Assembly (NCBI GenBank): GCA_964464605.1
Contig: CAYXJN010000009.1
Span: forward strand, 1-64,000
Length of the DNA stretch: 64,000 nt
Reading direction: 5' to 3'
DNA from: an uncultured Ignavibacteriales bacterium
GTDB taxonomy: Bacteria; Zixibacteria; MSB-5A5; GN15; FEB-12
Made by a program: the position numbers and the translations under genes. Under the pieces are notes generated by a model that saw only the letters and a program-made list of their open reading frames with translations, had not been told where the DNA came from and ran no database searches. Below are positions 48,585-64,000 of the stretch, one piece after another; the first letter of the stretch is position 1, and every line of letters starts with the position of its first letter.

Positions 48585-48642
48585 ATCAAGTCAGGTAAGT
48601 TATACACTGACCGATGAAAAGCAACGCAAAAAGGGGAAGAAA

Positions 48643-50349
48643 TTATTGGGCGGCTGGGACTTCGGCGGTAACCGGTTGCTCGACATATCCGTTGAGTTCT
48701 TTGCCGTATGACTTGAACTGAATACGAAATGTTGTTCCACGACCGGCAGCGGAATCGACAGACAGAAAAAGCTGCAGCGCTGTCGCAAGCCGATGGACGA
48801 TGGCCAGGCCTAATCCGGTTCCCTGTTTTTTGGTCGAAAAGAAGGGCTGGAAAATTTTCTTCTGATGCTCTTCCGGAATGCCGGGACCGTTGTCACGAAT
48901 TTCCAGTATAACCTGGTCGGTATACTGCGCCGGATGCAGAATAAACCTGACCTCCCCCGGTTTGCCGTCGAATGCCTCGCAGGCATTTATGGCTATGTTA
49001 TACAATAGCTGCTTTATCATATCTTCGTCCCCCGTGACATAGCAGATACTTACCGGAGAATCGAATGAGACACGAACCGTTTTGTTGAACTGCGCGTGAT
49101 GAAACAAGAGTTGAATGACATCACCGATCACGTGACACAGTTCTACTTTGTTGTACAAAGGCCTGTCGATTTTGGCATAAAGCAGGAAGTCTTTCAGAAC
49201 TCTGTTAAGCCGCTGCGATTCTTTGACAATTAGCTCCATCAACCTTGAGTTTTCTCCGTCCAGCGGCATCTCTTTTTGCAAGACTTCTACCGAACCGGAA
49301 ATAGCCGCAAGCGGGTTGCGGATTTCATGGGCAATCGAAGCGGATAATTCGCCGATAGCCGCCAGCCGGTCGGCCACACGAACTTTTTGTTCCAGCATTT
49401 TCGCTTCCGTCAAATCGGAAAAAATAGCGATCACGCCGCGCAGGCCGCTTTGTTCATCGACAAGTATCGAAGTGGAAAGACCGAGCGGTATGGTTGTTCC
49501 CTGCGGCGTGGTAATGGTAATCTCTTTACGCGGGTTTGATTCATTATGTTCGACACCGTTCATTAAGGTACCGGTCAGTTCCGGCATGAATTCGGAAAAG
49601 ACATCACTGCAAAGCATCCCTTTGACTGCTTCTTCTCTGTATCCAAGTATCCGCTCAGCAGAACGGTTGAAATAGACAATCCTCCCTTCCGCATCAACGG
49701 TCAAAAGCCCTGAGTTGAGATGCTTGAGAATTTCATCCGTTTCCAACCTCGCTTTACGAAGCGCCTGAGAAGCATCGGCAAGCTGTTGATCCTGCTTTTG
49801 CAGCCGTTCGGCAAGATATCCGGCGATAAAGGCAACTAAGTAGAAAATGAGGATATGCAAAAACAGCGTGTAGAAAACATTGTCACCGGCATCTAAAATA
49901 GTTTTTAACGATTGCAGCGCTATTTCGGAACTGCCGCTTTGGCTTACCCCCATCCAGACTATAATGGTGTAGGCAGCCGACACCAGCGAAGCAACCATCA
50001 GCGTTCCGACCAACCGATAGGCAAGCGCGGCCGATACGATGGTCAAAAGGAAAAGGGCTGAATATGAAGAGCTGTAATTACCCGTTGTGTAAATGATACC
50101 TGAGTCGATTGCTATTTCAAACAGGAACTGCAGCCCGACCAAAACGCTGATGACGTTTGAAAAACGGCGGGTTTTGTTGAACGCAAGAAACAACCCGAAA
50201 GTCAGCGTCAAAACGGAATAGACCACAAACGGAAACTGCAAAAACCCGGGATACTTCATCCAGAGCACGACAAGTGAAAACAGGATGATGTAAGAAACTA
50301 TCCGAAGCGGGAGAAAGAAGCCGAGTTTGCGTACGTGAGTCATTGCCAT
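48643..50349 (-). CDS. Sensor histidine kinase (6-TM N-terminal domain, PAS, HisKA, HATPase), PilS-like by context
   Basis: H-box AHEIRNPLAAISGS; N, G1 and G2 boxes (DNGPGIPEEHQ, GTGLGL). Lies immediately downstream of pilC, as pilS does in the myxobacterial pil cluster. No adjacent response regulator. Confidence 0.8.
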   Translation of the reverse strand: MAMTHVRKLGFFLPLRIVSYIILFSLVVLWMKYPGFLQFPFVVYSVLTLTFGLFLAFNKTRRFSNVISVLVGLQFLFEIAIDSGIIYTTGNYSSSYSALFLLTIVSAALAYRLVGTLMVASLVSAAYTIIVWMGVSQSGSSEIALQSLKTILDAGDNVFYTLFLHILIFYLVAFIAGYLAERLQKQDQQLADASQALRKARLETDEILKHLNSGLLTVDAEGRIVYFNRSAERILGYREEAVKGMLCSDVFSEFMPELTGTLMNGVEHNESNPRKEITITTPQGTTIPLGLSTSILVDEQSGLRGVIAIFSDLTEAKMLEQKVRVADRLAAIGELSASIAHEIRNPLAAISGSVEVLQKEMPLDGENSRLMELIVKESQRLNRVLKDFLLYAKIDRPLYNKVELCHVIGDVIQLLFHHAQFNKTVRVSFDSPVSICYVTGDEDMIKQLLYNIAINACEAFDGKPGEVRFILHPAQYTDQVILEIRDNGPGIPEEHQKKIFQPFFSTKKQGTGLGLAIVHRLATALQLFLSVDSAAGRGTTFRIQFKSYGKELNGYVEQPVTAEVPAAQ

Positions 50350-50363
50350 TCTTAAATAACAAC

Positions 50364-50381
50364 GGCGCCCGGTGGGGCGCC
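50364..50381 (-). terminator. Possible GC-rich hairpin terminator/attenuator after pilC
   Basis: GGCGCCC-GGTG-GGGCGCC perfect hairpin. The downstream T-tract on the minus strand is weak (GTTGTTATTTAAG). Confidence 0.35.
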
Positions 50382-50428
50382 GTCGATTGGTTTTACATAC
50401 TCGTTCGTTTCAGCATCGCGAGCGCGCG

Positions 50429-51628
50429 TTACTGAATCTTCCCGATGATATCAAACATCGGCAGGTACATGGCAACCAGAATGGCGCCGATGACCACACC
50501 CATAAAGACGATAATAATCGGTTCAATAATCGATGTCAGCGCGGTTACCGCTTCATCGACTTCTTCGTCGTAGAAATCGGCAATTTTGCTGAGCATATCG
50601 TCGAGTCCGCCGGTTTTTTCACCGACTGAAATCATCTGCGTTACCATCGGCGGGAACACACCGGATTCCTTCAGCGGACCGGTAATCGTTTCACCTTCGG
50701 CAATCGACATAACGGATTTGTTAATCGCGTTAGAAATAACCAGGTTGCCGGCCGTCTTTGCGGTAATTTCAAGAGCATCAAGAATCGATACACCCGAAGA
50801 TAACAGCGTTCCAAGCGTACGGGTAAACCGGGCGATTGACGATTTGCGTACGAGCGTACCAAGTACCGGCGAGCGGAGCAATACTTTGTCGAAAGTAAGC
50901 GCACCCGATGGCGTCCGCTTCCACCAGAAGAAAATACCGCCAAGGCCGATCATACCGAGCAAGATGTACATTATGTTGGTACGCAAAAAGTTTGAGGCGC
51001 CCAATACCGCAGCGGTCGGACCGGGAAGGTCGGCACCGAGACCTGAGAACATCTTGGCAAACACCGGCACGATAAAGGTCAACATACCGAAGGTAACACC
51101 GACGGCGACGATCACAATAACCGCCGGATAGACCATTGCACCTTTTACTTTACGAATCAACCGGTCAGCCTTTTCACGGTAAACGGCCAGACGAACCAAA
51201 ATAGCATCCAGCGCACCGCCGACTTCACCAGCCTCAACCATGTTGGTATACAGCTGATCGAAAATCTTCGGGTGACGGGCCAATGCTTCGGACAACGTTG
51301 CACCACCCTGGACGCTTTCTTTTACCTGTGAGATAATTTTTCCGAATTCTTTGTTTTCCGTTTGCGTCGAAAGAATTTCCAGACACTGCACCATCGGCAA
51401 ACCTGCACCGATCATGGTAGCAAACTGACGGGTAAAGCGGGAGATTTCGACTTTCTTGACTCCCGTTCCGAACTTGATATTTATCTCCGGCGCCCGCTTG
51501 GATATATTGGTCACCATGATCTTGTTTTGACGCAGAACGCGTTCAAGGTCCTCACGGCTTTTCGCTTTCAGCGAACCCTGAACGGCGGCGCCAGCGAGCG
51601 TCTTTCCTTTGTATTCAAATACCGGCAT
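50429..51628 (-). CDS. pilC: Type IV pilus inner-membrane platform protein PilC (GspF family)
   Basis: 399 aa; two GspF repeats with three TM helices. Confidence 0.9.
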   Translation of the reverse strand: MPVFEYKGKTLAGAAVQGSLKAKSREDLERVLRQNKIMVTNISKRAPEINIKFGTGVKKVEISRFTRQFATMIGAGLPMVQCLEILSTQTENKEFGKIISQVKESVQGGATLSEALARHPKIFDQLYTNMVEAGEVGGALDAILVRLAVYREKADRLIRKVKGAMVYPAVIVIVAVGVTFGMLTFIVPVFAKMFSGLGADLPGPTAAVLGASNFLRTNIMYILLGMIGLGGIFFWWKRTPSGALTFDKVLLRSPVLGTLVRKSSIARFTRTLGTLLSSGVSILDALEITAKTAGNLVISNAINKSVMSIAEGETITGPLKESGVFPPMVTQMISVGEKTGGLDDMLSKIADFYDEEVDEAVTALTSIIEPIIIVFMGVVIGAILVAMYLPMFDIIGKIQ

Positions 51629-51658
51629 GCGACTGATCCTTCCCTTGTCCGCTACAGC

Positions 51659-52732
51659 TTAGCTGTAAGCCGGAGTTTTCTGACGCGAGAGCATTTCCGA
51701 AAGCTCCTGCGGGTTGCTTGAATATCCCATGGCGTCGTTGATTGAAATTTTGTTGGTCGTGTACAACTCGGCCAGTGACTGATTCATGGTTTTCATTCCG
51801 TACTTCTGTCCTGATTGAATCATGGAGTAAATCTGATGCACCTTGTCATCGCGGATAAGCGCGCGAATGGCAGGGGTAACAATCAGAATTTCCAGCGCGG
51901 CAACACGTCCACCGCCGATTTTCGGAATAAGGTTTTGCGAGACAATTGCCTGCAGCGAGAAGGAAAGCGAGATACGCACCTGCTCCTGCTGGTTGGTCGG
52001 GAACGAATCGACAATACGGTTGATCGATTCCGCAGCCGAGTTCGTGTGCAACGTTGCAAACGCCAAGTGACCGGTTTCGGCAATCGACAAGGCGGATTCT
52101 ATCGTTTCCAGGTCGCGCATTTCACCGACCAGCACCACATCCGGATCTTCACGCAGCGCATACTTCAGAGCCGCAGCAAAGGAATTGGTATCCGAATACA
52201 CTTCACGCTGATTTACCAGCGCCATCTGGTGGCGGTGCAAATATTCGATCGGGTCTTCAACGGTGATAATATGCACCGGACGTTCTTTGTTGATCTTATC
52301 GATCACGGATGCCAGCGTCGTCGATTTACCCGAACCGGTCGGTCCGGTAACGAGTACCAGCCCGCGCGGCAGTTTGGAAAATTCAGCGATGACTTTAGGC
52401 AACCCGAGTTCTTCGAAGGTGAGAATCTTGTACGGAATCTGACGCAGCACCACTGCCACATTACCGCGCTGCATGAACATATTGCAGCGGAAGCGGCTCA
52501 TCGATTCGATACCGAACGAAAAATCGAGTTCAGAATTCTGTTCGAATTTCTGTTTCTGCTTTTCATTCAACATGGAATAGGAAAGCTTTTTTGTCTGATC
52601 GCTGGTCAAGGCATCATGATTGAGCCGGGTAAGCTTACCGTCGATACGAACGACTGGCGGAGACCCCACTGTGAGATGGAGATCCGAAGCATTCATCTTT
52701 ACCATCTGTTCTAATAATTCGCGTAATGTCAC
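51659..52732 (-). CDS. pilT: Type IV pilus retraction ATPase PilT
   Basis: Walker A GPTGSGKST, Asp box, His box, and the AIRALIRD motif (PilT AIRNLIRE-type). Confidence 0.9.
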   Translation of the reverse strand: MTLRELLEQMVKMNASDLHLTVGSPPVVRIDGKLTRLNHDALTSDQTKKLSYSMLNEKQKQKFEQNSELDFSFGIESMSRFRCNMFMQRGNVAVVLRQIPYKILTFEELGLPKVIAEFSKLPRGLVLVTGPTGSGKSTTLASVIDKINKERPVHIITVEDPIEYLHRHQMALVNQREVYSDTNSFAAALKYALREDPDVVLVGEMRDLETIESALSIAETGHLAFATLHTNSAAESINRIVDSFPTNQQEQVRISLSFSLQAIVSQNLIPKIGGGRVAALEILIVTPAIRALIRDDKVHQIYSMIQSGQKYGMKTMNQSLAELYTTNKISINDAMGYSSNPQELSEMLSRQKTPAYS

Positions 52733-52874
52733 CTGTTGTCTCCGCTCCAGTTTGTTGGAATTCTTTACTATCGAGTATATCGGCGGAAACAGCCGATTTC
52801 TTGACTATGGAAGGGTCGATTTTAGGGAAGTAAGTTATTGAGCAGTAAAGCGGTAAAAGAGACTAAAAACAGGC

Positions 52875-54569
52875 TTAGGCAGTAACGCCGAAAACCTCAT
52901 CCACGCCGACCAGACCCTGTTTCATCTTGTCTACGGCGCACATACGCAGGCTGAACATCCCCTCCTCCAAAGCCACTTTACGGATTTCGGTATCCGGAGC
53001 TCTTTGGAGGATTAGGGCCTCAATGGCCGGGCTGATGGGCATAACCTCATACAGACCGGTACGGCCGGAACGGCCGGTCTGGTTGCATTCACTGCAACCG
53101 GTAGCTTCGAAGGCACGGATATTTCGTAGCAGCTCTTTCGGCATATTCAACCCGTCTACCTGCTGCGGCGTCAGGTTGATTTCATGCTTACAGGACTGGC
53201 AAAGCTTACGAACCATTCGCTGGGCCATAATCAGTTTGGTTGCCGAGGCAACCAGATAGAACGGAATATTCATATCGATCAAACGAGTGACCGATGAAGG
53301 CGCATCGTTGGTGTGAAGCGTCGAAAACACCAAGTGCCCCGTGAGCGCGGCACGAATAGCGATTTCTGCCGTTTCGGTATCACGAATTTCACCGACCATG
53401 ATAATGTCCGGGTCCTGTCGCAAGAACGAGCGCAAGGCTGCGGCGAAGGTTAACCCGATATCGCTTTTTACTGCGACTTGGTTGATGCCGTCGAAGTTGA
53501 ACTCGACCGGATCTTCGGCGGTCATGATGTTCACGTCTACTGTATTCAATGTCTTAAGAGCGGAATACAGCGTCGTTGTTTTACCCGAACCGGTAGGCCC
53601 CGTTACCAGAATAATACCGAACGGTGAACTCAGTTTATCCTGAAATTTCTTAAGGTCTTCTTCTCTAAATCCAAGTCGCGTCATGTCGACCATGAGCGCC
53701 ATCGGATCGAGAATTCGCATAACGACTTTTTCGCCGTAAATTGTCGGCAGAACGGACACACGCAAGTCGACCGTGCGGCCGGCGATTTTGATTTTGATAC
53801 GACCATCCTGCGGCAAACGCCGTTCGGAAATATCGAGATCGGCCATAATTTTTACGCGCGATATAATTGCCGCGCGATATTTAAACGGCAGTGGCGCCAT
53901 TTCACGCAAATCACCGTCGATACGATAGCGTACGCGAATCCGTTTTTCGTACATTTCAAGATGGATATCAGATGCGCGCGTTCTGATCGCGTCGCCGATA
54001 ATCGAGTCTACCAGCTTAACGAGCGGTTTGTCCTGAATTGCAGACAACAAATCAGAGTCGGTAGGCGCATCATCATTTTCGACGATCTCCAGCCCGCCGC
54101 TGTCGTCTTCGAGTCCTTTGACGATTTCAGAAAGACCGCTGCCATCTTTGTAAAACATGTAGATCGCCTTTTCGATGGCGGCTTCCGGCGAGATAACCGG
54201 CTGAACGGTGCAGCCCGTAATAAATTTGATGGCATCGATAACGTAAATATTGTTCGGATCGCTTATCGCGACGAGGATATTCTTATTGATCTTGGATATG
54301 GCGATGACTTTGAACTTGCGGGCAATATCAAGCGGGATGAGCTTGACGACTTCCGGATTCAACTCGATATCACTTAAGCGAAGCGCGCCGATTTTGAGGT
54401 GCTTGCCGACTAATTTGGCAACCTCATCCTCGGACTGTACGGCACCAACCTGCACTAATGCGGTTTCGAATTTCTCTTTCTTATTCCGCACTAAGGCAAG
54501 CGCCTGATCGACCTGCTCTTGTGAAACCTGACCGGCTTTTACCAGTAAGGATGCCAGTTCTGTTGACAT
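52875..54569 (-). CDS. pilB: Type IV pilus assembly ATPase PilB (GspE family)
   Basis: N-terminal GspII_E_N domain, Walker A GPTGSGKTTT, tetracysteine motif CQSC...CSEC. Confidence 0.9.
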   Translation of the reverse strand: MSTELASLLVKAGQVSQEQVDQALALVRNKKEKFETALVQVGAVQSEDEVAKLVGKHLKIGALRLSDIELNPEVVKLIPLDIARKFKVIAISKINKNILVAISDPNNIYVIDAIKFITGCTVQPVISPEAAIEKAIYMFYKDGSGLSEIVKGLEDDSGGLEIVENDDAPTDSDLLSAIQDKPLVKLVDSIIGDAIRTRASDIHLEMYEKRIRVRYRIDGDLREMAPLPFKYRAAIISRVKIMADLDISERRLPQDGRIKIKIAGRTVDLRVSVLPTIYGEKVVMRILDPMALMVDMTRLGFREEDLKKFQDKLSSPFGIILVTGPTGSGKTTTLYSALKTLNTVDVNIMTAEDPVEFNFDGINQVAVKSDIGLTFAAALRSFLRQDPDIIMVGEIRDTETAEIAIRAALTGHLVFSTLHTNDAPSSVTRLIDMNIPFYLVASATKLIMAQRMVRKLCQSCKHEINLTPQQVDGLNMPKELLRNIRAFEATGCSECNQTGRSGRTGLYEVMPISPAIEALILQRAPDTEIRKVALEEGMFSLRMCAVDKMKQGLVGVDEVFGVTA

Positions 54570-54633
54570 ACCAGTAGTCTATTCGCTCCTAACAGTCGTT
54601 GTTGCTCTCCCGAATCACACCCAAACGCGGGTG

Positions 54634-55125
54634 CTAATCCTGGAAAATATCATCCAAGCGGTTTTCCGCCTGGGAGGCAAAATCTCCGGCAAGCTGCGGC
54701 TTGCTGTTTTGATTGGAGTTCGCCTGAATCTGATTGAAAATCGCGCCCAATGCCTGTGAGGTTTCACGCGCATACAGACGCACCATGCCGATAGTCGTGC
54801 GGTCATCGAAGATCACCACAAGAATCGAGCGTTCACCCACCAGTGACATGTGGATGTGGTCCTTTTTACCCTGATGGAACAAGACCGAAAATTCCGGTTC
54901 GCCGACCAGGCGGGCGATCTCTTTCGTCGAGGCAAATGACCCCGCCAAAAGCGCCGCTAAAGCCGTCGTATCAAGTGAGTGCGTGAATCCCTGACGGGTA
55001 ATCAGGTGTCCATCCTTGTCAACCAGCAAGGCGCACTTCGCTTCGGCTTGTTTGAGCATTTTCGAGATTATCGCATCTATTGCGCGAATCTCTTCTTCGT
55101 AAATGACGAGCGAATCATCAGCCAT
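54634..55125 (-). CDS. mglB: MglB (roadblock/LC7 GAP of MglA)
   Basis: Closely resembles the remembered Myxococcus MglB sequence (LVIYEEE...LVDKDGHLI...GENEF...FHQGKKD...VVIFD) and has an acidic C-terminal tail. Confidence 0.8.
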   Translation of the reverse strand: MADDSLVIYEEEIRAIDAIISKMLKQAEAKCALLVDKDGHLITRQGFTHSLDTTALAALLAGSFASTKEIARLVGEPEFSVLFHQGKKDHIHMSLVGERSILVVIFDDRTTIGMVRLYARETSQALGAIFNQIQANSNQNSKPQLAGDFASQAENRLDDIFQD

Positions 55126-55148
55126 ATAATCCTCAGCCTCCTTACCGG

Positions 55149-56207
55149 CTATCGAATACCAAATAATCGTTTAAAGAATCCCCGCTTCTTGGCTTCCGGA
55201 CGCCGTTTGAGCGGCGGAGCCATGGCAGGACGAATCCGACCACTATCATTCATCATATCATCAGCACCTTTCGCGTCATCGAGCATAAACGGCCGCGTGA
55301 CAGTCGAGGTGGCGGATTCAGGAGTACTGCTGCCATACAAACCGGCAGCAGGGTTACGTCTTTCCGCGGTGGCAACGGAACCTTGTGAGGCTCCAGATGA
55401 ACCGGGATACGGACGGTAGCTGTCAGTGGACGTTGCCGCCGGCGCAAAGGACGGTTCGACCGGCGCACCGAACCCGGTGCGGGAAGGGGTTTCAGCCGCC
55501 GATCCAAACGGGGAGGGGGACGAAGCTGCCGCAGCGGCGGTCGGATAGCTTGGAATTTCCGGTTGCGGCGCAGGCTGCGCAACGGCAGCAGGAGCGGCAA
55601 CGGCGGACGGACGGGTGCGCGCTTTGGTCGTCTTCGCTTTTTCCAGCACCAGTTTGATAACTAATTTCAAAGTATCAAACACACCGGTTCCGGAAGGCGC
55701 AGCCGCTTCGAAATGCGGCCAGTTGTGCGTATTCAGTTTCGCGTTAAGTTCATCAACCGAAAGCACACCCGGTAAATCCCGTTTGTTGTATTGAATCACG
55801 ATTGGGACTTCATTAACGTCGTATCCGTACTCTCGTAAGTTCTCTTCAAGATTCAAAAGCGATTCGATGTTCTCATCCATTTTGTCCGGCTGGCTGTCGG
55901 CGACAAACACGACACCATCAACACCGCGCAGCACTAACTTACGGGTCGCGTTGTAATAGACCTGACCGGGAACGGTGTACAACTGAAAGCGGGCGGCGAA
56001 ACCGTTGATCGTTCCAATGTTGATCGGAAGAAAGTCAAAATAGAGCGTGCGATCAGCTTCCGTTGCCAATGAAATCAAATTGCCGCGCGTGTTCTGCGGC
56101 ACTTTGGAATGGACATACTGCAGATTGGTGGTTTTACCGGATAAGCCGGGACCATAGTACACAATCTTGCAGCAGACTTCCCGTGCTGAATAATTAATTG
56201 ATACCAT
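55149..56207 (-). CDS. mglA: MglA Ras-like GTPase with ~160-aa disordered C-terminal extension ending in an amphipathic helix
   Basis: Residues 1-195 are near-identical in motifs to MglA ([43 protein letters not shown]). They are followed by an Ala/Pro/Ser-rich tail and a terminal [13 protein letters not shown]. Confidence 0.85.
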
Positions 56208-56208
56208 A

Positions 56209-56553
56209 TCACCCGACTGCTTTCAGTTTGTTGATCGCGTTTTTGATTTCCAGCCGGATCAGGCCGATGTTGATATCCCTTTCGGTTGTCACGACTAAAA
56301 TGCCGCGACCGCCGGAATCTGTGAAAAACATCTTTCCGTTTTCCGCTTCAATCGTCACCTGACGTAAATTGCTGGTCTGCAAACGCTCGAGCGACTTCTG
56401 AATGTTGGACGTAATAGAAGCTGCCAGCGCACCGACAGTTTCTCCTTCAAACGAAGTCGAAAGATCGGCCGCGATAACGATGCCGTCATTACCGACAACC
56501 ATCGAACCGGTGATACCGGATGTCTTATTCAGTTCACTGAGTACTTGATACAT
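56209..56553 (-). CDS. Roadblock/LC7 domain protein (MglB paralogue, MglC-like)
   Basis: Start placed at [10 protein letters not shown]. Roadblock-like pattern ([16 protein letters not shown]...[20 protein letters not shown]). Its stop is 1 nt from the mglA start. Confidence 0.6.
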
Positions 56554-57556
56554 GGTATTTCTCCGCGTTCGGCGACAGCTTTTGACTGTACCGTTCTGAA
56601 ACATATTTTCTGATTATATCGAGCGCCTGGGTGATACGGATATGGAGCACATCGTCTCCATGCCGTTCCGCCACTACCAACAGGCAGGTCTGCTCATCGG
56701 CGCGGGCAATCGCCATACGCGCTTCCGGCAGAGTAAGGTCTAATTTTTCCGTCGTTTGCCAGCCGCCGCGCATCAGCACTCTGTTATTGTGCATTAACAG
56801 CTCGCATGCATACGGTGCCCATTCTTCCGGATCAACCGTACCGCGATGACACTGCGCCAGCATCAATCCTTCCGAATCGACAACCGCAGCCAATTTGACC
56901 GACCAGTCCTCGCACATATAGCGAACGGCACGTTCGAAGCCGTTGGCATCGGAATGAGAATTCGGTGCTTGATAGTAAACATCGGTTAAGCGATCAGATG
57001 GTGATGAGACCGTGTCCATAGCATGATGACCGAAGGAACTGGTATGGGCAGCGGAAGCCGGGCTCGGTTTCGGCGCTCCATTTTTTGAAAGCACGATTGT
57101 CGCCCGGCCGTTCTGGTCGTATTCACGACCGGCCATCGCCTGCGTCTGCGGCTCAAAACGGCGACGCGGCGCACCGAACATCTCTTTGAGAAAACCCATC
57201 AATAAAAACGGCGCAGGAACAGAAAGTAACAACAGTCCCGGTATATACGCGCCGAAGGCGGCTTCCATGGCATTGCCGAAATTCATCGAATAAAAAGCAA
57301 CGGCAAGCACGGCGAACAGAAAGCTCAAGCCTGCTCGGTAGACTAAACAGGTAAACGCTGATTTTAAAATAACGGAGACTGACTCAGCACGCATAAGCAG
57401 GTATGACATAACGCCGTAATACACCAGTTCTAAAAGCAGTGTTGCCGCTGAAATCTCTGCCAGTCCGGTGCCGAATCGCTCCGGAAACAACGCCAGCGTA
57501 ACGGCAAGCTGAATCCCTGCAAAGATCAGCAATTGTCGAAATGTGCGTCCATTCAT
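56534..57556 (-). CDS. Membrane protein (4 TM) with C-terminal roadblock/LC7-like domain
   Basis: N-terminal hydrophobic helices, then a C-terminal segment (KLAAVVDSEGLMLAQ...CLLVVAERHGDDVLHIRITQAL) with roadblock-like beta-alpha-beta pattern. Confidence 0.5.
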   Translation of the reverse strand: MNGRTFRQLLIFAGIQLAVTLALFPERFGTGLAEISAATLLLELVYYGVMSYLLMRAESVSVILKSAFTCLVYRAGLSFLFAVLAVAFYSMNFGNAMEAAFGAYIPGLLLLSVPAPFLLMGFLKEMFGAPRRRFEPQTQAMAGREYDQNGRATIVLSKNGAPKPSPASAAHTSSFGHHAMDTVSSPSDRLTDVYYQAPNSHSDANGFERAVRYMCEDWSVKLAAVVDSEGLMLAQCHRGTVDPEEWAPYACELLMHNNRVLMRGGWQTTEKLDLTLPEARMAIARADEQTCLLVVAERHGDDVLHIRITQALDIIRKYVSERYSQKLSPNAEKYHVSSTQ

Positions 57557-57579
57557 CGGTGTACCTTTCCGGCGTCCGG

Positions 57580-58422
57580 TTATTTATACCGAATGCGCAG
57601 TTCCTCTATTTTCATTCGCAAAGTACCCAGATTCGCTTCCGGCAGCGCCACAAACAGGAAAAATCCCCGTGCCGCACGTAACAGGTAAAACGTGAATTGC
57701 TGGGCTTCAATAAGAATTGTATCGACATCTCCGTACTTAACCCGTACTAATTCCCGCGAAACGGTGTTGCATACTTCAGCTAACGTCGCGGCACAGGAAA
57801 TCGAATCCAAATTAGAGCGCCATTCCGATTCGACCACCAAACCTTCAGTATTGAAAAAAAGCGCCCCACCCATTCCCTGAATTTCGACACCCAGTTCCAA
57901 TACTTCCCGTGCCGTAAGCACAGTAGCCATAGTGGCGTGAGTCGGACCGTCGGTCCGCTCCATTGATTTCGCAGCGCCTGGAATAACAACCCGTCCGGAT
58001 TCTTCCGGCAGTTTGCGAGCGATATCCAAAAGCTTGGTAATCTGCGGATTTCCTTTATCCGCGTCATGCAGCCGCTTCAACAGCGTAATTGCAGAATTAA
58101 ACTCCCCTTTGTAAATATAAATCTCTGCTAAAAGCAGTTCGATTGCTCTGGTGTGGCCGTCAATTTCAATCGCCTTTTGCGCTTCAATTTCCGCCCAGTC
58201 ATAAAGTCCGCGATCCAAATTGATCTTAGCCATAACGACATGCGCCGCGCCATACGACGGGTGCACTTTCAGTCCATTATGACAGACACGAAACGCCTTG
58301 TCTAACTCACCATTTTTCCGGTAAGCCTCAGCCAGCGCCGCAAATATCTGCGAGTTGGGGTCAGTCTCTAAAAGCTTCTGACATTTCACTATCCGATCTT
58401 GTACATCGACTTGTGTTGCCAT
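57580..58422 (-). CDS. TPR-repeat protein fused to a C-terminal roadblock/LC7-like domain
   Basis: Three or four TPR units in residues ~10-140. The C-terminus (GMGGALFFNTEGLVVESEW...ILIEAQQFTFYLLRAARGFFLFVAL) has a roadblock-like pattern. Confidence 0.55.
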   Translation of the reverse strand: MATQVDVQDRIVKCQKLLETDPNSQIFAALAEAYRKNGELDKAFRVCHNGLKVHPSYGAAHVVMAKINLDRGLYDWAEIEAQKAIEIDGHTRAIELLLAEIYIYKGEFNSAITLLKRLHDADKGNPQITKLLDIARKLPEESGRVVIPGAAKSMERTDGPTHATMATVLTAREVLELGVEIQGMGGALFFNTEGLVVESEWRSNLDSISCAATLAEVCNTVSRELVRVKYGDVDTILIEAQQFTFYLLRAARGFFLFVALPEANLGTLRMKIEELRIRYK

Positions 58423-58524
58423 AATGCCTGTAAGGTACCTATAGGTAAAAGGTTACTAAATTTCTAATTTTCTACAATCGGTAAAGATAGATATACCAAT
58501 ACGTTAAGTCAATTGGATTCTATC

Positions 58525-58899
58525 TCAACTGAGTGTCCGTCTCGTTTCAAAAATCCCGTACAAAAAGAGACCGGCCATACAGCCGTACATCATCGGAACC
58601 AGAAAACCGGGAGCACTGAAAAATTCCATCGTATGGAAAAGCGCCATCAACTGGCTGGCCCCCAAAACCACAAAGGCGGCCATAAACAGCTGCCAGCTTT
58701 TCGCAAGCATTCCACCGCGCACCAGAGTCAGAACTCTAAATGAACCAAGCGCACAGGCAACCGCCAAACCCAGCACGGTCAAGTTCAACAGCGAGGAGGG
58801 CTGCATTAAGGCAATGAAAGATGCGGCATGAGCTGATTCTCCTCCGCCCAACACTACCGCTCCGATAAGTAGCACACATAACCGTTTCATATCGCTCAA
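58525..58899 (-). CDS. Small hypothetical membrane protein (124 aa)
   Basis: Signal/TM MKRLCVLLIGAVVLGGG plus three further hydrophobic helices. Translationally coupled to the DUF4388 gene by a 4-nt overlap. Confidence 0.45.
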   Translation of the reverse strand: MSDMKRLCVLLIGAVVLGGGESAHAASFIALMQPSSLLNLTVLGLAVACALGSFRVLTLVRGGMLAKSWQLFMAAFVVLGASQLMALFHTMEFFSAPGFLVPMMYGCMAGLFLYGIFETRRTLS

Positions 58900-60095
58900 C
58901 CTCTCACCATTTTAACGACCCGATCTGCTCGCTTGATCGTTTTGTACAAATTGTCTTCTATGTGATACCGTTTGACTATTTCACGACGGGTAGCCAGCGG
59001 TTCCGTAATTTCTTTTTTCACCAATCCAACCGCTTCGCGGAACGGACCAACGCCTAACACCTGAAAGACAAATTCAAGATGTTCAGAGAGCATACCATCC
59101 AGACTGGTCATCAGTTTGTGGTAGCGCACATTGGGCGGAAGCGCTTTAACAGCGGTCAGGTATTTATCGTATGAAGGGCCTTCTTCTGCCTGCGGATCGA
59201 ATCCCGGGAAGTGCATCAAGAGTCCGTTTCGATATTGCGCGGTAAAGGCGGCATAGCGGCTGCTTTCGCCGACAATCGATTCGACCAATGTTCTGATTCT
59301 GAAGAAACAGGAATTGTACATGGTGAAAATAATCGCCAGCACGATATCCTCTTCATCTTCGATTTCAGTCGGGCGTTCCTCCCGCTTACCGCCTGCAATA
59401 ACCAGATTATTGACAATCAGCTTGTAGACGGCGCGGCAGGTAACGAATTCACCGATCGGAGAAACGCTGATAAGTTCCGGCAAGGTGCGCTGTCCGTTCA
59501 TAAGGGCGAGAATTTTGAATTCATCAAGCGACAGCACAATCTCTTCTTCACCGCTTTTCGGATTCCGGTTGACCGCTAATTCGATATTATCCGGCGGCAA
59601 TACTTTCTGAATCTCCACCCACTCATCAACCCGGCGGGTCCCTTCCATCAGTACGCTCATAGTCGGAAGTTCGATGATAAACGGCGTATTGGCAGGAAGC
59701 TTTCCTTCATGAAGAATGAAGTCCCCTTCATGCCAGGAGAACAGATTGTAAACGATCTCTTCAATCTGCATCCGCAAACATTCTGCAATTTCTTCTTTGT
59801 CGAACAACTGCATGTCGATAAGCGTTGAGCCGAGCTGACGGCCGGTTTGCTTATGCATGGTTATTGCGCGGTCTAAATCCGTCTTGGTGATTTTCCCTTT
59901 GGCCAAAAGCATATTACCTAAGAGATCTTCGCTTGAATTCAGCGAGGATGCATAAATAATATTCCCGACGCGGAATGCGACTTCCTTCTGACGGGTCTGA
60001 GTCCGAATCTCAAGCAGTCCGGTCTTTTTGCCGGCGGCTAATAACTGCAGAATATCCGGAAACGAAACCGTTCTAAGATTTCCTGACAAACTCAT
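58896..60095 (-). CDS. DUF4388 domain-containing protein
   Basis: N-terminus LSGNLRTVSFPDILQLLAAGKKTGLLEI is the DUF4388 signature. A second, similar segment near residue 180 (LSLDEFKILALMNGQRTLPEL). Confidence 0.6.
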   Translation of the reverse strand: MSLSGNLRTVSFPDILQLLAAGKKTGLLEIRTQTRQKEVAFRVGNIIYASSLNSSEDLLGNMLLAKGKITKTDLDRAITMHKQTGRQLGSTLIDMQLFDKEEIAECLRMQIEEIVYNLFSWHEGDFILHEGKLPANTPFIIELPTMSVLMEGTRRVDEWVEIQKVLPPDNIELAVNRNPKSGEEEIVLSLDEFKILALMNGQRTLPELISVSPIGEFVTCRAVYKLIVNNLVIAGGKREERPTEIEDEEDIVLAIIFTMYNSCFFRIRTLVESIVGESSRYAAFTAQYRNGLLMHFPGFDPQAEEGPSYDKYLTAVKALPPNVRYHKLMTSLDGMLSEHLEFVFQVLGVGPFREAVGLVKKEITEPLATRREIVKRYHIEDNLYKTIKRADRVVKMVRG

Positions 60096-60259
60096 GTGTA
60101 CGCCCTTGCCAAATAGTTACCTATACCGTCTCTTCCGTTTGACGGCATTTCCCTCTCTATATCGGGCGCTCCCCATGATAACTTAAACGAAAATCAGACG
60201 GTAACTTCACGTCGTTGCAAGGTTTTTGCAGACGGGCGAACTGAAACGGTAATCAGCGG

Positions 60260-62545
60260 TCAGTCAATCGGTTCTGCGCGGTTCAAACTGAAACGTATCC
60301 ACCCGACCTCGACAAGCGGAACGACGTTTGAAGCAGTGCTGTTTGGCGTTTGTTCTGAAAATTGCTGTTTCTGCTTGTCGAGTTGCTCAGAATATGAACA
60401 GATAATCCAATCGGCGCCGGATTTTGTAAGCGTATCCACGGCAACCGGAGCTATCGGCGTCCCCGATTGCAGAACTAACAGGGTTTTGCCGGATGATCCT
60501 TCCAATGCCGGCAACGCCTGATCCGTTCTACCGCAGAAGAGAATCTGCATACTATCAAACTGTAACTGAAATCCACTCCAAAAAGAACTATACCCGTTCA
60601 CACTTCGATTTTTTGACATACTCCCGACTTCACGAACACGCAGGGAAGAATGTAGTCCATTTTCGGTCAGCGCGTCCTGCATACTGTTAACCAGTTCAGG
60701 TGCAACGCTTATTGAATCGAGGTGGTATCGATCCGCTAATCTTCCTACATCATCGAGTACGCCATATTCGGCACTACGAACCAGGAGTGACCGCAGATGC
60801 GTTATCCCTTCATGCTTGAGTGCCGGTTCGATAATCCGCTCACCGACATCATAATCCCGTTCTCTGAGTCCGTTAATAACCAGATCAGCTTCGGTACTTC
60901 CCGCTTGCGACACAATTCCGGCAATACCACCCGGTATGGGAACAAACAATACGGTTGGGCCATCTTCATCTTTGATATCCGCTCCAATCTTTGCGGCAAC
61001 AAACAAATTGGCCAATACAACAACACCGATTACCAACACGCGACGGTACTTTCGGGAGTTGATGGCAAACGACCCGATTACGATAAGCGCATACAAACCC
61101 AATACCAGCCCGATTGGAACATCCCCCGTCGTAACCGTAAATGACAAATCAGTCGCAAACAGATGAATAAGCTGAATTGTTTTTTCTAACAACAAATTGA
61201 GCAGCGACCCGACAAAGATGCCGAGTATCGGCAAAATCAAATACGCGATCAACGTGAGCATCACGCCAATCACCGCCGTCGATACGAGCGGAATAATAAC
61301 AATGTTGCTGAGAAAACCTGAGAAGGTTACCCGTTCGTAATAGTACGCCAGAATCGGCAGAGCAATAAGCTGTGCGACAATGCAAACTACAACCGGCAGC
61401 ACTAACCACCTAAACCATCGGTAGCTGTAATACCGGCCAAAGGCGGTAGTAACCTGCGGTACGACCAACACCAATCCCCAGGCTATAGCGAATGACATTT
61501 GGGTGCCGGCATCGAACAACTGCGTCGGGTCGAAGAGCAAAATCAACAAAGCAGCCGAGGCGATGATATTATTCAAATCAACCCGACGCTCTACCATCCC
61601 GGCAATGAGAACTAATACCGCCATCAGCGATGCCCGCACCACCGATGGTTCTCCATAACACAAGAGCGTATAGATACCAACTATCACGAGTAGAATTAAA
61701 CCACGAGCACGACGAGTAAGTGGAAACAGCCAAAGCACGACGGTTACGAATAGCAGAACTACCGCTACGTTCGAACCGGAGACCGCCAACAAATGCAGCG
61801 TACCACTGTCACGAAAGTAGGTGTACAATTGTGCCGGAATGTTTCGCGTTTCCCCGATTAAAAAGCCGGAAGCTACCGCTGCTGATACCGGCGATAGTGT
61901 TTCTTCCAGTGTTTCCCGAATAGCGGTGCGAAGTTTATCGGTCTGGGCGATAACCGCGTACTTGCTTCGATTGTCGATCCGCACATCCAGCAGCGTAGTC
62001 GCGTACACCACGCCGAATATCCCTTTAAGATTAACGGAACGGATATAATCGAACCCCCAGGGCGTTCCACGTCCGCGAATCGGATAGATTACCGCCGAAA
62101 ATTCTATTCTGTCTCCGCGCTGTAAAACGGTACTGGTATCGGAAACACTGAGCAGAATGCTCCCCTCAACGCGAAACGGCAGCTTGGCAGCAAGCGAATC
62201 AAGTTCGAGTACCAACTCTGTTCTGTCTTTTTTCAAAAGCGGCCAGTCGCGAACTGTCCCCCAAATTTGGTAGCGCGTTTCCCCATCGACAAAGTTTGAG
62301 ACGTGATACGGTCCTACATCGTACATTTGATGCGCAAAATAAAATCCGGAAAAGCAAAGCAACGTGCCGCTGAAGCAGAGAATGGCTAACGTCTGCCGTG
62401 AATGCCACAAGCCCCACAATGCACTGATACAACAGAGCACTGCGAGTGCGAGAAACCATCCGGAAGGAATCCCGAATTGGTCCGCCACCAAAATTCCGGC
62501 AATGCAAAACGGCAGCAAGAAAAGACTTGGATATTTACTGAGCAA
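60260..62545 (-). CDS. comEC: DNA internalisation competence protein ComEC/Rec2
   Basis: DUF4131-like N-terminus, then the multi-TM competence domain (LAVSGSNVAVV, LSFAIAWGLV). The C-terminal ~250 aa lacks a recognisable HxHxDH metallo-beta-lactamase motif. Confidence 0.8.
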   Translation of the reverse strand: MLSKYPSLFLLPFCIAGILVADQFGIPSGWFLALAVLCCISALWGLWHSRQTLAILCFSGTLLCFSGFYFAHQMYDVGPYHVSNFVDGETRYQIWGTVRDWPLLKKDRTELVLELDSLAAKLPFRVEGSILLSVSDTSTVLQRGDRIEFSAVIYPIRGRGTPWGFDYIRSVNLKGIFGVVYATTLLDVRIDNRSKYAVIAQTDKLRTAIRETLEETLSPVSAAVASGFLIGETRNIPAQLYTYFRDSGTLHLLAVSGSNVAVVLLFVTVVLWLFPLTRRARGLILLVIVGIYTLLCYGEPSVVRASLMAVLVLIAGMVERRVDLNNIIASAALLILLFDPTQLFDAGTQMSFAIAWGLVLVVPQVTTAFGRYYSYRWFRWLVLPVVVCIVAQLIALPILAYYYERVTFSGFLSNIVIIPLVSTAVIGVMLTLIAYLILPILGIFVGSLLNLLLEKTIQLIHLFATDLSFTVTTGDVPIGLVLGLYALIVIGSFAINSRKYRRVLVIGVVVLANLFVAAKIGADIKDEDGPTVLFVPIPGGIAGIVSQAGSTEADLVINGLRERDYDVGERIIEPALKHEGITHLRSLLVRSAEYGVLDDVGRLADRYHLDSISVAPELVNSMQDALTENGLHSSLRVREVGSMSKNRSVNGYSSFWSGFQLQFDSMQILFCGRTDQALPALEGSSGKTLLVLQSGTPIAPVAVDTLTKSGADWIICSYSEQLDKQKQQFSEQTPNSTASNVVPLVEVGWIRFSLNRAEPID

Positions 62546-62561
62546 TCTTCCCCCGCCGAAA

Positions 62562-64000
62562 TCAGCGTTTGAAAATCCTGCGTCGTATTTCCGACATCAT
62601 ATCGACCCGCAAAATAATGGCAAAAATAAGGAAAAGCGACAGACCGACCACACCGGGAATGATAACCGCCAATATCCGGACAACAACGTTTCCGTCACTC
62701 GGGAACATTCCATCCAGCGCAAACCGTGCCGTGCCGAAACCAATCAGGGAAACGACGCAGAGTTTCACACTATTCACTATCAGTTGTGCCCAGTTAACCG
62801 GTACATTCCGCTGCGGAAGATACATGAGTAATAACACGCAATTGATAATACCGCCAATCGAGGTCGCCGCCGCCAATCCGGCAAAACTCAGAATCTGCAT
62901 GAGCGGATAATACAGCGCTGTATTCACCACGACTGAGATAATCGAAAAAATCATCGGCAGCTTGGCGTCATTTTGGGCATAGTAAAACGGGGTCAGTACC
63001 CGCACGGTAGCGAAGGCACAGAGTCCGTATGAATAATGCAAAAGCGCAAGACTGGTGTTAAGCGAATCTGCTTCGGTGAATCTTCCCCACCCAAAAATCA
63101 GCGAAACAATTTCCCGGCCAAAAAGCGCGAGATAAAAAGCGGATGGAATCACGAGCAGCAAATTGAGATTGATACTTTGCCGAAACCCCGTTTCCAAACC
63201 ATCGCTGTCTTTTTTCGCAATCAATTCAGTAATGCGCGGCAGCGTTACTGTACCGAGGGCAACAGCAAAAACCCCCATCGGGAAATGCATCAACCGAAAA
63301 GCAAAATTCAAATAGGAAAGCGCACCCTGCCCTAAAAATGACGCGAAAAGGGTGCTGATAAGAATATTGATTCGCCCGGCCGAAAGCCCGATGAGCATCG
63401 GCGTAAACAGCGATATCATTTTCCTGAATTCCGGATTGACAAAATCGAGCGTGAACTTGAACCGGTACCCTCGCCTATGCAGTGACGGCCACTGAATAGC
63501 AACCTGCGCAATACCGCCGATAACGACGCCAAAAGCGAGCAGATAAATCGGTTGATCCATTAAACCGAAAAAGAGCACAACCGGTAAAATCGAACCGATG
63601 TTAAACATCGATGAGGAGAGGGCCGGAATACCGAACTGCCCCATCGAATTGAGAATCCCCATGACCAAAGCGGCAACGGAAACGAGTAAAAGATAGACAA
63701 ACATGATCCGGGTCATGTCGACGGTCAGCGCAAATTTTCCCGGTTCCGAGGCAAACCCCTTGGCCATGAGATAGACAATCGCCGGCGTCAGTATCATCCC
63801 GATCACCACTATCAGCCCGGTAATCAAAATGAGCTTGGTCATGACGATATTGGCGAGTTTGAACGCCTCGGTTTCCGATTGCTCGACCAAGCTGGTTTTG
63901 AAAACGGGAACAAATGCAGAGGAAAGTGCCCCTTCGGCGAACATATCCCGCAAAAGGTTGGGAATACGAAAAGCGGCCACAAAGGCATCGGTTGCCATGC
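62562..64000 (-). CDS. murJ: Lipid II flippase MurJ, partial (N-terminus beyond window end)
   Basis: MATDAFVAAFRIPNLLRDMFAEGALSSAFVPVF matches the MurJ region after TM1. 14-TM MOP-superfamily topology. The frame stays open to position 64000. Confidence 0.8.
   Translation of the reverse strand, partial: MATDAFVAAFRIPNLLRDMFAEGALSSAFVPVFKTSLVEQSETEAFKLANIVMTKLILITGLIVVIGMILTPAIVYLMAKGFASEPGKFALTVDMTRIMFVYLLLVSVAALVMGILNSMGQFGIPALSSSMFNIGSILPVVLFFGLMDQPIYLLAFGVVIGGIAQVAIQWPSLHRRGYRFKFTLDFVNPEFRKMISLFTPMLIGLSAGRINILISTLFASFLGQGALSYLNFAFRLMHFPMGVFAVALGTVTLPRITELIAKKDSDGLETGFRQSINLNLLLVIPSAFYLALFGREIVSLIFGWGRFTEADSLNTSLALLHYSYGLCAFATVRVLTPFYYAQNDAKLPMIFSIISVVVNTALYYPLMQILSFAGLAAATSIGGIINCVLLLMYLPQRNVPVNWAQLIVNSVKLCVVSLIGFGTARFALDGMFPSDGNVVVRILAVIIPGVVGLSLFLIFAIILRVDMMSEIRRRIFKR

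Follow-up and report, generated by a model that had tools for sequence, protein, structure and literature searches.

A ten-gene string joins roadblock proteins, MglA and MglB to the pilus motor genes

The DNA analysed here (the window) comprises 64,000 nucleotides (nt), positions 1 to 64,000 of contig CAYXJN010000009.1 in GenBank assembly GCA_964464605.1, from an uncultured bacterium of the phylum Zixibacteria that was deposited under Ignavibacteriales. On its minus strand, at 60095..50429, ten consecutive genes run from a PATAN/DUF4388 gene to pilC. Their products include the small GTPase MglA and its partner MglB, three further proteins with roadblock domains (one soluble, one fused to TPR repeats and one to a bundle of up to four transmembrane helices, hereafter 4TM), a small membrane protein and the motor of a type IV pilus. 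In gene order, with protein lengths in amino acids (aa), these are:

60095..58896, minus strand: PATAN/DUF4388 gene, 399 aa
58890..58525, minus strand: small membrane protein gene, 121 aa counted from ATG
58422..57580, minus strand: TPR+roadblock gene, 280 aa
57556..56534, minus strand: 4TM+roadblock gene, 340 aa
56553..56209, minus strand: soluble roadblock gene, 114 aa
56207..55149, minus strand: mglA, 352 aa
55125..54634, minus strand: mglB, 163 aa, the protein with a conserved C-terminal DDIFQD
54569..52875, minus strand: pilB, pilus extension ATPase (T2SSE, TIGR02538)
52732..51659, minus strand: pilT, pilus retraction ATPase (TIGR01420)
51628..50429, minus strand: pilC, pilus platform protein (T2SSF, NF052606)

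Spacings along this string are 5, 102, 23, −20 (an overlap), 1, 23, 64, 142 and 30 nt. An initial annotation of the same DNA, made from the sequence alone, had described a minus-strand string of nine to ten genes at these places that includes pilB-pilT-pilC, with gaps of at most 142 nt and gene overlap, and the measured values bear this out. Its further statement, that the cassette is physically coupled to the pilus motor ATPases, was verified as tight linkage to pilB-pilT-pilC. PilB matches T2SSE (expectation value (E) 1e-135) and MshEN (E 5e-16) in Pfam and scores 674.5 bits on TIGR02538, just short of the cut-off of 675.65; PilT reaches 510.6 bits on TIGR01420 (cut-off 319.1), and PilC matches T2SSF (E 6e-69) and NF052606 (492.7 bits). 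The string is preceded by comEC and murJ and followed by genes for a histidine kinase of the PilS type and an isomerase of the PpiC type. The cluster at this locus contains no gene for a RomR/RomX-like partner.

A group-1 MglA with a long tail and a putative membrane anchor

The following parts were distinguished in MglA:

55623..56207, minus strand: G domain, aa 1-195, group-1 type
55152..55622, minus strand: C-terminal tail, aa 196-352, Pro/Ala/Ser-rich, predicted disordered
55401..55415, minus strand: RPYPG motif in the tail, aa 265-269
55152..55190, minus strand: putative membrane-targeting sequence, aa 340-352, a C-terminal basic amphipathic motif

By the group-1 criteria of Wuichet & Sogaard-Andersen (2015), MglA has a canonical group-1 G domain with an intrinsic Arg finger, and it has a cognate MglB. 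Residues 3-192 align with MglA of Myxococcus xanthus (5ymx) at 275 bits and ~68% identity, and 60 aligned homologues keep GPGLSGKT, the R53-T54 pair, TVPGQ and NKRD without exception. Among these motifs are the group-1 hallmarks, namely the intrinsic Arg beside the G2 Thr (D52-R53-T54) and a G3 motif that reads TVPGQ (T78-V-P-G-Q82) rather than DxxGQ. Coupling to mglB, defined in that survey as a position within four genes, is given by an mglB that lies 23 nt 3′ of mglA (gap 13-21 nt in 77 loci). MglB matches Robl_LC7 (Pfam, E 5e-14) and aligns over aa 5-162 with M. xanthus MglB (6izw, 128 bits) and also with Thermus MglB (73 bits); on the Thermus-specific NCBIfam equivalog it scores 94 bits, under the cut-off of 200. 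By these matches, it is the predicted GTPase-activating protein (GAP) of MglA, with a roadblock fold. The MglA/MglB pair of the initial annotation is thus upheld by the 275-bit and 128-bit matches to the M. xanthus proteins.

What that annotation missed is the most unusual feature of this MglA, a tail that ends in a putative anchor of the MinD type. The above survey of prokaryotic small GTPases left out proteins >240 aa, and a MglA of 352 aa, with ~160 aa past the G domain, falls outside its single-domain range of 150-240 aa. The tail is composed of 14% alanine, 13% proline and 11% serine, measures at least 146 aa across homologues (median 167) and has a predicted local distance difference test (pLDDT) score mostly <50 in AlphaFold2. 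Within it, [RK]P[YF]PG occurs ~80 residues before the C-terminus in 120/120 close MglA homologues and in just 3/150 more distant representatives; judged from these 150, the RPYPG motif may be Zixibacteria-specific.

The terminal segment opens with a nearly invariant P.MAP[SP]L[RK], continues with G-[FIL]-F-K-R-L-F-G and closes with [ILM][KR]. In the 120 homologues, this terminal motif is (nearly) invariant while the linker varies. Its 8-residue core, GF[F/L]KRLFG, shows one conservative difference from KGFLKRLFGG, the membrane-targeting sequence (MTS) of Escherichia coli MinD and a routine protein-to-membrane tether (PMC5471200). For the aligned 10-mer, the hydrophobic moment on the Fauchere-Pliska scale is 0.62 in MglA versus 0.55 in MinD; on the Eisenberg scale, taken over 13 residues of the MglA C-terminus, it looked low. 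In the AlphaFold2 model, aa 345-348 form a short helix of low confidence. From its sequence, the end of the tail appears to be a putative MinD-type membrane anchor, and our literature search found no paper that ties MglA to a membrane anchor.

Three further roadblock domains

Two of the three additional roadblock domains are parts of larger proteins:

57583..57927, minus strand: roadblock domain of the TPR protein, aa ~166-280
56582..56950, minus strand: roadblock domain of the 4TM protein, aa ~203-325

The 114-aa soluble protein matches Robl_LC7 (Pfam PF03259) at E 6.6e-16 and 58.3 bits against a cut-off of 23. The start of its gene overlaps the end of the 4TM-roadblock gene, with an overlap of −8 to −29 nt in 80/80 loci. 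Among solved structures, Asgard roadblocks come closest to it (7yh1, E 4e-12), and CvnB5 (3leq) matches it at E 1e-4. On sequence grounds, we rejected an assignment as MglC orthologue, there being no MglC-named chain among PDB matches up to E 10 with either a sequence or a profile query; an MglC structure is presumably present in the PDB.

The TPR protein carries its repeats at aa ~1-135 (TPR_14, E 2.6e-10). Its C-terminus reaches E 0.0019 and 18.4 bits on Robl_LC7, under the Pfam cut-off of 23, and a profile of this region matches the roadblock profile with 97% probability (E 9.5e-11 over 109 columns, hhalign). Orthologues at two further loci (L008 and L096) have precomputed Robl_LC7 matches.

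For the 340-aa 4TM protein, hydropathy and model indicate three transmembrane helices that are strong and a fourth that is weaker. It has no Pfam or NCBIfam match, and a profile search of the PDB ranked dynein roadblock first, yet only at E 0.21. According to hydropathy and an AlphaFold2 model built from an alignment of 16 homologues, a bundle of three to four transmembrane helices (aa 1-127) is followed by a disordered linker and the roadblock domain, modelled as an alpha-beta-beta-alpha-beta-beta-beta-alpha fold (aa ~206-322, pLDDT 81-89). When this model was compared with the PDB by Foldseek, the top of the list was taken up solely by structures of MglB, roadblock and LAMTOR proteins (E 6e-7; target TM-score, i.e. 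template modelling score, ~0.8), LAMTOR2 structures among them. The family is small: 17 homologues were detected among 5.8 billion proteins, and three of these bear an organism name (two Zixibacteria and one unclassified '[bacterium]' MAG, i.e. metagenome-assembled genome).

The two roadblock domains that Pfam leaves doubtful are confirmed, as predicted folds, by fold comparison (4TM protein) or profile comparison (TPR protein). The initial annotation's three extra roadblock proteins (soluble, membrane-anchored and TPR-fused) are accordingly found to have roadblock folds by Pfam, by AlphaFold2 with Foldseek, and by hhalign.

The small membrane protein has no family match in Pfam or NCBIfam. 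A signal-peptide-like N-terminus (AHA/AS) is followed by three hydrophobic helices, the hydropathy segments lying at aa 4-22, 39-57, 68-86 and 96-114. Its gene occupies the same position in 69 loci, at a median distance of 3 nt from the PATAN gene.

The PATAN protein carries an MshEN-like insert

The first gene product contains a PATAN domain at aa 4-159 (Pfam PF14332, E 2.9e-32, 111.7 bits against a cut-off of 25), in agreement with its initial description as a DUF4388 protein. No recognised domain was found in the C-terminal ~235 aa, where a profile search of the PDB also gave nothing. The PATAN domain is interrupted by a small element:

59766..59924, minus strand: MshEN-like insert in the PATAN domain, aa 58-110, 53 residues (24+5+24)

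This insert scores 47.8 bits on NCBIfam NF053729 (cut-off 38), and its profile matches MshE of Vibrio cholerae (5htl, E 3e-7) and PilF of Thermus (6f8l, E 8e-12). MshEN modules consist of two 24-residue motifs with 5 residues between them and have R, L, G, L, L and Q as key residues (PMC5013675). The spacing of the insert (aa 58-81, 82-86 and 87-110) equals this layout, with L-L-G-L-I-H at the key positions of motif 1 and Q-L-G-I-L-Q at those of motif 2, so that the glycine and hydrophobic positions are kept. The insert is a possible candidate site for cyclic di-GMP (c-di-GMP). The N-terminal MshEN region of PilB (aa 4-48) reaches 25 bits on the same c-di-GMP motif model; given the 47.8 bits of the insert, any sensing of c-di-GMP at this locus may more likely fall to the PATAN protein. 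An Rfam scan of 50000..60500 returned no riboswitch or other RNA family, and so no c-di-GMP riboswitch in the conserved gaps described below.

In Synechocystis, the PATAN domains of regulators bind PilB1 and the N-terminus of PilC and suffice for output. Since PATAN genes, moreover, neighbour mglA and mglB, contact of the PATAN protein with the adjacent motor is plausible.

Gene order is conserved across Zixibacteria

To our knowledge, Zixibacteria are known from MAGs only. Among species-representative genomes, our scan found 198 with a relative of the soluble roadblock protein, and the best 80 loci were compared. The gene order, whose conservation in related genomes the initial annotation had left to be checked, is unchanged in 80/80 species-level Zixibacteria loci as far as the contigs reach, and module and pilB are never separated by rearrangement in 73 loci. 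Four apparent exceptions (MglA missing at L008 and L060, the TPR protein misplaced at L052, the small membrane protein missing at L070) are an artefact of taking one best tblastn hit per query; a look-up of the locus showed that L008 does carry MglA. The loci of 4TM-roadblock homologues read rpsT-murJ-comEC-PATAN-small membrane protein-TPR-4TM-roadblock-MglA-MglB-pilBTC-pilS-ppiC, an order that is kept even in a 3.5-Mb genome at ~31% identity, and the least conserved gene among collinear loci shows 28-41% identity. Junction lengths are almost fixed across 50-80 loci.

The locus itself is present identically on 15 metagenome contigs. Named homologues are from Zixibacteria; protein searches with the soluble roadblock and MglA brought, among the matches listed, only close Zixibacteria relatives, and the genome scan did likewise. 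Relatives beyond the phylum came to light through a search of cluster representatives and through contig look-ups (see below).

Median identity to the window differs between the proteins as follows:

PilT, 84%
MglB, 78%
soluble roadblock, 77%
PilB, 77%
PATAN, 64% (PATAN part 76%, C-terminal part 56%)
MglA, 58% (G domain 85%, tail 40%)
TPR-roadblock, 52%
small membrane protein, 40%
4TM-roadblock, 35%

The soluble roadblock and MglB are thus conserved on a par with PilB.

Likely transcription units

Three elements with a possible role in transcription were located within or directly behind the string:

58484..58512, minus strand: TTGACT-17-TATCTT, promoter-like (consensus scan), in the gap of 102 nt upstream of the TPR-roadblock gene
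52775..52806, minus strand: promoter-like element GTCAAG ... CCGATATA in the 142-nt pilB-pilT gap
50360..50385, minus strand: strong terminator-like hairpin of 11 bp with 9 G-C pairs, 3′ of pilC

Before the TPR-roadblock gene, the TTGAC(A) and TAT..T blocks are at least 90% conserved in 70 aligned Zixibacteria gaps of 85-117 nt, with TTGACA-17-TATATT as the phylum consensus. The blocks of the pilB-pilT gap are at least 90% conserved as well (62 aligned gaps, 123-158 nt), and conserved promoter-like boxes are also carried by the gap upstream of the PATAN gene. These three minus-strand gaps (52733-52874, 58423-58524 and 60096-60259) have near-fixed lengths throughout the phylum, with medians of 147, 107 and 119 nt, respectively, and a CCGATAT(A)A box is common to two of them. 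We read the conserved boxes as promoter-like, other regulatory roles being possible too. The mglB-pilB gap measures 64 nt here and 32-158 nt across loci, and no conserved sequence was found in it in 74 aligned loci. The hairpin after pilC is the best terminator-like site in 46500..62700 and the only strong one.

The likeliest units on this sequence evidence are PATAN with the small membrane protein, the genes from TPR-roadblock to pilB, and pilT with pilC, with possible read-through between them. The MglA switch is probably transcribed jointly with the gene for the pilus extension ATPase. A single unbroken operon from the PATAN gene to pilC was also considered and is doubtful, given three gaps with conserved promoter-like boxes.

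Tailed MglA proteins and related modules beyond Zixibacteria

An exhaustive HMMER search of 1.84 billion cluster representatives yielded 6887 matches, the best 150 of which were classified. Almost all of these 150 are long (255-717 aa) MglA-family proteins with low-complexity tails, and 122/150 keep both DRT and TVPGQ. By simple criteria, at least 37/150 have a basic amphipathic end of the type KKKGFFxxLF and 18/150 a hydrophobic transmembrane helix at the C-terminal end; since a cluster may be represented by its longest member, these counts are not frequencies. A third group has a beta-like amphipathic motif at its end, e.g. LRLVLEIRV. Cluster look-ups named the organism for a few proteins, which come from Planctomycetota or Zixibacteria; some of the transmembrane-anchored proteins are from Planctomycetota. 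The presence of two different anchoring devices at one position of MglA argues for membrane attachment as a selected function.

Look-ups of loci outside Zixibacteria showed the following gene orders:

L096: TPR+Robl_LC7, roadblock, transmembrane-anchored MglA, MglB, PATAN-TPR-beta-propeller
L091: PATAN-TPR-propeller, TPR protein, roadblock, transmembrane-anchored MglA, MglB
L098: PATAN, 296-aa protein, weak LAMTOR3-like roadblock paralogue, roadblock, MTS-type MglA, MglB
L092: TPR, PATAN, MTS-type MglA, MglB
L095 and L097: two TPR proteins, roadblock-like protein, transmembrane-anchored MglA, MglB (the MglA queries for these look-ups fall in clusters named Planctomycetota)

The Zixibacteria roadblock profile matches partners outside the phylum at E 2e-19, 2e-14 and 4e-22, the profile of the TPR protein's C-terminus matches an outside partner at E 5e-10, and that of the 4TM protein's C-terminus matches the LAMTOR3-like protein of L098 at E 7e-5. 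Judging by these profile matches, a core of PATAN, TPR-roadblock, roadblock paralogues, anchored MglA and MglB is broader than the phylum Zixibacteria. Apparently Zixibacteria-specific are the small membrane protein, the direct coupling to pilBTC and the 4TM anchor that one paralogue carries.

On the unrelated metagenome contig of L092 (5281-10977), rpsT again adjoins the TPR-PATAN-MglA(tail)-MglB string, maybe through shared neighbourhood ancestry; in Zixibacteria, rpsT lies upstream of the module with two genes (murJ and comEC) between.

How the module may act on the pilus motor

We regard it as moderately probable that the cassette works as an MglA switch based at the membrane and controls the motor of the type IV pilus, whose genes follow directly downstream, a reading in which domain identities, layout and conservation are computed, and interactions and output inferred. 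The tail would hold MglA at the inner membrane and, with a contour length of ~50 nm (an estimate at ~0.36 nm per residue), would allow the G domain to reach the cytoplasmic base of the pilus, while MglB would turn MglA off. The 4TM-roadblock protein and the translationally coupled soluble roadblock might form a heterodimeric membrane platform that positions or regulates MglA, by analogy to MglB/MglC and to Ragulator. The TPR-roadblock protein could serve as adaptor between GTP-bound MglA and the motor, comparable to the TPR proteins SgmX of Myxococcus and Bd2492 of Bdellovibrio, and the PATAN protein would, like the PATAN domains of Synechocystis, make contact with PilB and PilC, perhaps under the control of c-di-GMP. 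The output would be the place and time at which PilB or PilT engages PilC; in Myxococcus, the pilus ATPases are sorted by MglA/MglB.

Several points weigh against this proposal. In monomeric MinD, a single helix of this type binds membranes only weakly. The AlphaFold2 model of MglA, computed with 60 homologues, is poor (mean pLDDT 56, low confidence in the N-terminal half) and informative solely for the disorder of the tail. In the insert of all PATAN orthologues, both guanine-stacking Arg residues are replaced (L58 and Q87) and Gln32 has become H81; in MshEN, mutants of Arg9 and Gln32 changed affinity at most fivefold (PMC5013675). Outside Zixibacteria, no pil genes lie within 8-9 kb of the module at L091, L092 or L095-L098, so that the family is not intrinsically tied to pili. 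Inside the phylum, the collinear block also holds rpsT, murJ, comEC, pilS and ppiC, and as these housekeeping flanks are equally collinear, phylum-wide synteny is supportive, not decisive, for function. Finally, three conserved promoter-like elements point to up to three transcription units, not one.

Among the alternatives, it is possible, although on balance unlikely, that the additional roadblock proteins regulate the GTPase cycle in the manner of MglB, MglC or RomY (as co-GAP, GAP inhibitor or guanine nucleotide exchange factor) and do not form a membrane scaffold. The Myxococcus roadblock paralogue MglC binds MglB and RomR (PMC4719450, PMC10329633), Wuichet et al. found group-1 MglA genes coupled to two MglB homologues, and the conservation of our soluble roadblock resembles that of MglB. 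However, the fusion of one paralogue to a membrane anchor and of another to TPR repeats fits roles in localisation and as adaptor, and no sequence similarity to MglC was detected. Regulator and scaffold views may also both hold.

We consider it clearly unlikely that the module is a general membrane-associated MglA system for polarity or signalling with a target other than the pilus, next to pilBTC through inherited gene order. The related modules without nearby pil genes in five other lineages would fit such a system, as would the fixed order of unrelated housekeeping genes in the Zixibacteria block and the conserved promoter-like element that pilT seems to own. Yet the gap of 32-158 nt between mglB and pilB is free of conserved promoter-like sequence, no rearrangement parts the module from pilB in the 73 loci, and links of MglA, PATAN domains and TPR partners to pilus motors are on record from three unrelated phyla.

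Less probable again is a role of the MglA tail as protein-docking or auto-inhibitory region, with RPYPG and the basic C-terminus binding a partner, for example a roadblock dimer, PilB or MglB. RPYPG does not vary within Zixibacteria and, much like the phylum-specific 4TM-roadblock and small membrane proteins, is nearly confined to them, and short conserved motifs inside disordered regions are typical docking sites; but the terminal motif matches a proven membrane-targeting sequence nearly residue for residue, and distant homologues have a true transmembrane helix at the same position, which points to membrane attachment. Docking and anchoring are compatible in any case, as RPYPG may dock within a membrane tether.

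Quite improbable, in our view, is a cassette that governs a DNA-uptake (competence) pilus instead of motility polarity, with MglA gating assembly together with ComEC: type IV pili power DNA uptake in many bacteria, and comEC, collinear in 55 Zixibacteria loci, precedes the PATAN gene by 164 nt, but a conserved promoter-like gap parts the two, comEC is equally near murJ (median gap 10 nt), the presence of pilT and of a PilS-type kinase points to a type IVa pilus that retracts and has general functions, and this explanation departs from a membrane-based switch on the pilus motor in its output only.

Significance

The MglA/MglB pair is the model for a Ras-like polarity switch, and this model was built on the soluble, ~195-aa MglA of few cultured species. 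The locus described here shows a different solution, in which the switch is apparently tethered to the membrane through a long flexible linker. Judging by our classification, MglA proteins with a tail and a membrane anchor seem to abound in uncultured bacteria, Planctomycetota included; the length cut-off of the main survey excluded them. If anchor and roadblock platform hold true, they offer a testable route from a small GTPase to the pilus motor and a bacterial parallel to the anchor in the Ras hypervariable region and to Ragulator, with a bearing on the evolution of small GTPases. The short motifs involved (MTS, RPYPG and MshEN-like insert) would be testable in heterologous hosts, although Zixibacteria are uncultured.

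Going further, we put forward tentatively, and with less conviction than the proposal for this locus, that Zixibacteria show an elaborate version of a widespread, as yet unanalysed class of bacterial Ras-like GTPases, made up of MglA G domain, long disordered linker akin to a hypervariable region, and C-terminal anchor (amphipathic or transmembrane helix). Such a GTPase would act with a heteromeric roadblock set, one member of which is anchored in the membrane as well, as a Ragulator-like platform, here wired to the pilus motor; it might be a bacterial counterpart of the eukaryotic scheme in which an anchored small GTPase works on a roadblock scaffold.

Other features of the window

Apart from the module, the following genes were annotated:

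62545..60260, minus strand: comEC, DNA-uptake channel (Competence, E 6e-52; DUF4131)
48643-50349, minus strand: PilS-type histidine kinase (6TM_PilS, PAS, HisKA, HATPase_c), 3′ of pilC, past the strong terminator
46809-48584, minus strand: PpiC/SurA-like isomerase, the gene after the PilS-type kinase
20919..23825, minus strand: 968-aa subtilase (Peptidase_S8, FlgD_ig, Por_Secre_tail), probable type IX secretion cargo

The position of comEC next to the module may link the pilus to natural transformation. No gene for a PilR-type response regulator is adjacent to that of the PilS-type kinase. A 210-aa open reading frame (ORF) follows ppiC at 46177-46809 (minus strand) and has no Pfam match at E 1e-5; unannotated genes of 204-209 aa come after ppiC in the related loci L007-L010.

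With its Por_Secre_tail sorting domain, the S8 protease lends some support to the type IX secretion system that the initial annotation had ascribed to the organism. Two other proteins have uncommon architectures: in a 984-aa sigma-54 activator (34106-37060, minus strand), a long N-terminal TPR (MalT-like) region replaces the receiver domain, and in an 816-aa membrane sensor (8027-10477, plus strand), a CHASE2 domain is joined to a Ser/Thr protein kinase domain. A 756-aa ORF at 26300-28570 (minus strand) has no Pfam match at E 1e-5.

Comparison with known systems

All domain families of the module, the link between MglA and pili, and that between PATAN and MglA/MglB are already known. The initial annotation had suspected an uncharacterised variant of the polarity system. 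This holds insofar as the literature library searched holds no paper that treats MglA in Zixibacteria; it does not extend to the neighbourhood of PATAN genes with mglA/mglB, which has been reported for several phyla (Makarova et al. 2006; Wuichet & Sogaard-Andersen 2015). New are the anchored, tailed MglA, the fixed trio of further roadblock paralogues with its transmembrane-fused and TPR-fused members, the recurrence of the roadblock/MglA set across lineages, and its joining to the pilus motor operon in one phylum.

The M. xanthus system (MglA, MglB, MglC, RomR/RomX, RomY and SgmX) shares with the window a group-1 MglA G domain (275 bits, with equivalents of R53, T78 and Q82), a cognate MglB with its C-terminal helix (128 bits), roadblock paralogues beyond MglB, a partner with TPR repeats and a functional connection to PilB/PilT. 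Here, however, MglA has a ~160-aa tail with a membrane-targeting end, three extra roadblock domains (transmembrane-fused and TPR-fused ones included) take the place of one, and the cluster shows neither similarity to MglC nor a RomR/RomX gene. The mglA and mglB genes of M. xanthus, as we take it, do not stand in one string with pilB.

Thermus thermophilus has an adjacent mglA-mglB pair as well and provided the prototype structure of an MglB-dimer GAP; our MglB matches 1j3w at E 3e-19 and our MglA matches 3t12 at E 4e-71. It differs as a minimal two-gene system, with a tailless MglA of 196 aa and without extra roadblocks or PATAN.

Bdellovibrio bacteriovorus is not known to have an MglB, and its MglA-TPR hub is reportedly connected to c-di-GMP. 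There, MglA forms a hub with a TPR protein (Bd2492) and RomR at the invasive pole and acts jointly with the TPR protein in controlling the formation of type IV pili (PMC3983030). The likeness ends with the TPR protein, which has no roadblock domain there, and with an MglA that is tailless at 197 aa.

The conservons of Streptomyces (CvnA-D) likewise combine a membrane protein, a roadblock protein and an MglA-family GTPase in one operon, but their GTPase is of group 2 (GTPGQ, no Arg finger), their membrane component is a histidine kinase, and they have no link to pili.

The cyanobacterial PATAN-REC proteins (PixG, PixE and TaxP1) carry the same alpha-helical insert (alpha-clip, MshEN-like) in their PATAN domain, which in Synechocystis is localised at the membrane and binds the motor proteins named above. 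The window protein differs by an uncharacterised C-terminal region of ~235 aa without receiver domain, and by its coupling to MglA/MglB, not to a chemotaxis-like system.

To E. coli MinD, the likeness is that of the MglA C-terminus with KGFLKRLFGG, at equal amphipathicity; the MTS-like motif sits here on a Ras-like GTPase, via a long disordered linker, and not on a ParA-type ATPase such as MinD, where binding depends on oligomerisation.

With Ragulator-Rag and Ras/Rho, for which there is no evidence of orthology and whose anchor is lipid where ours would be an amphipathic or transmembrane helix, the module shares a design principle: a membrane-tethered platform of roadblock folds for a small GTPase, as in Ragulator (L098 encodes a weakly MAPKK1_Int/LAMTOR3-like protein), and a disordered polybasic GTPase C-terminus that ends in a membrane anchor, as in Ras/Rho.

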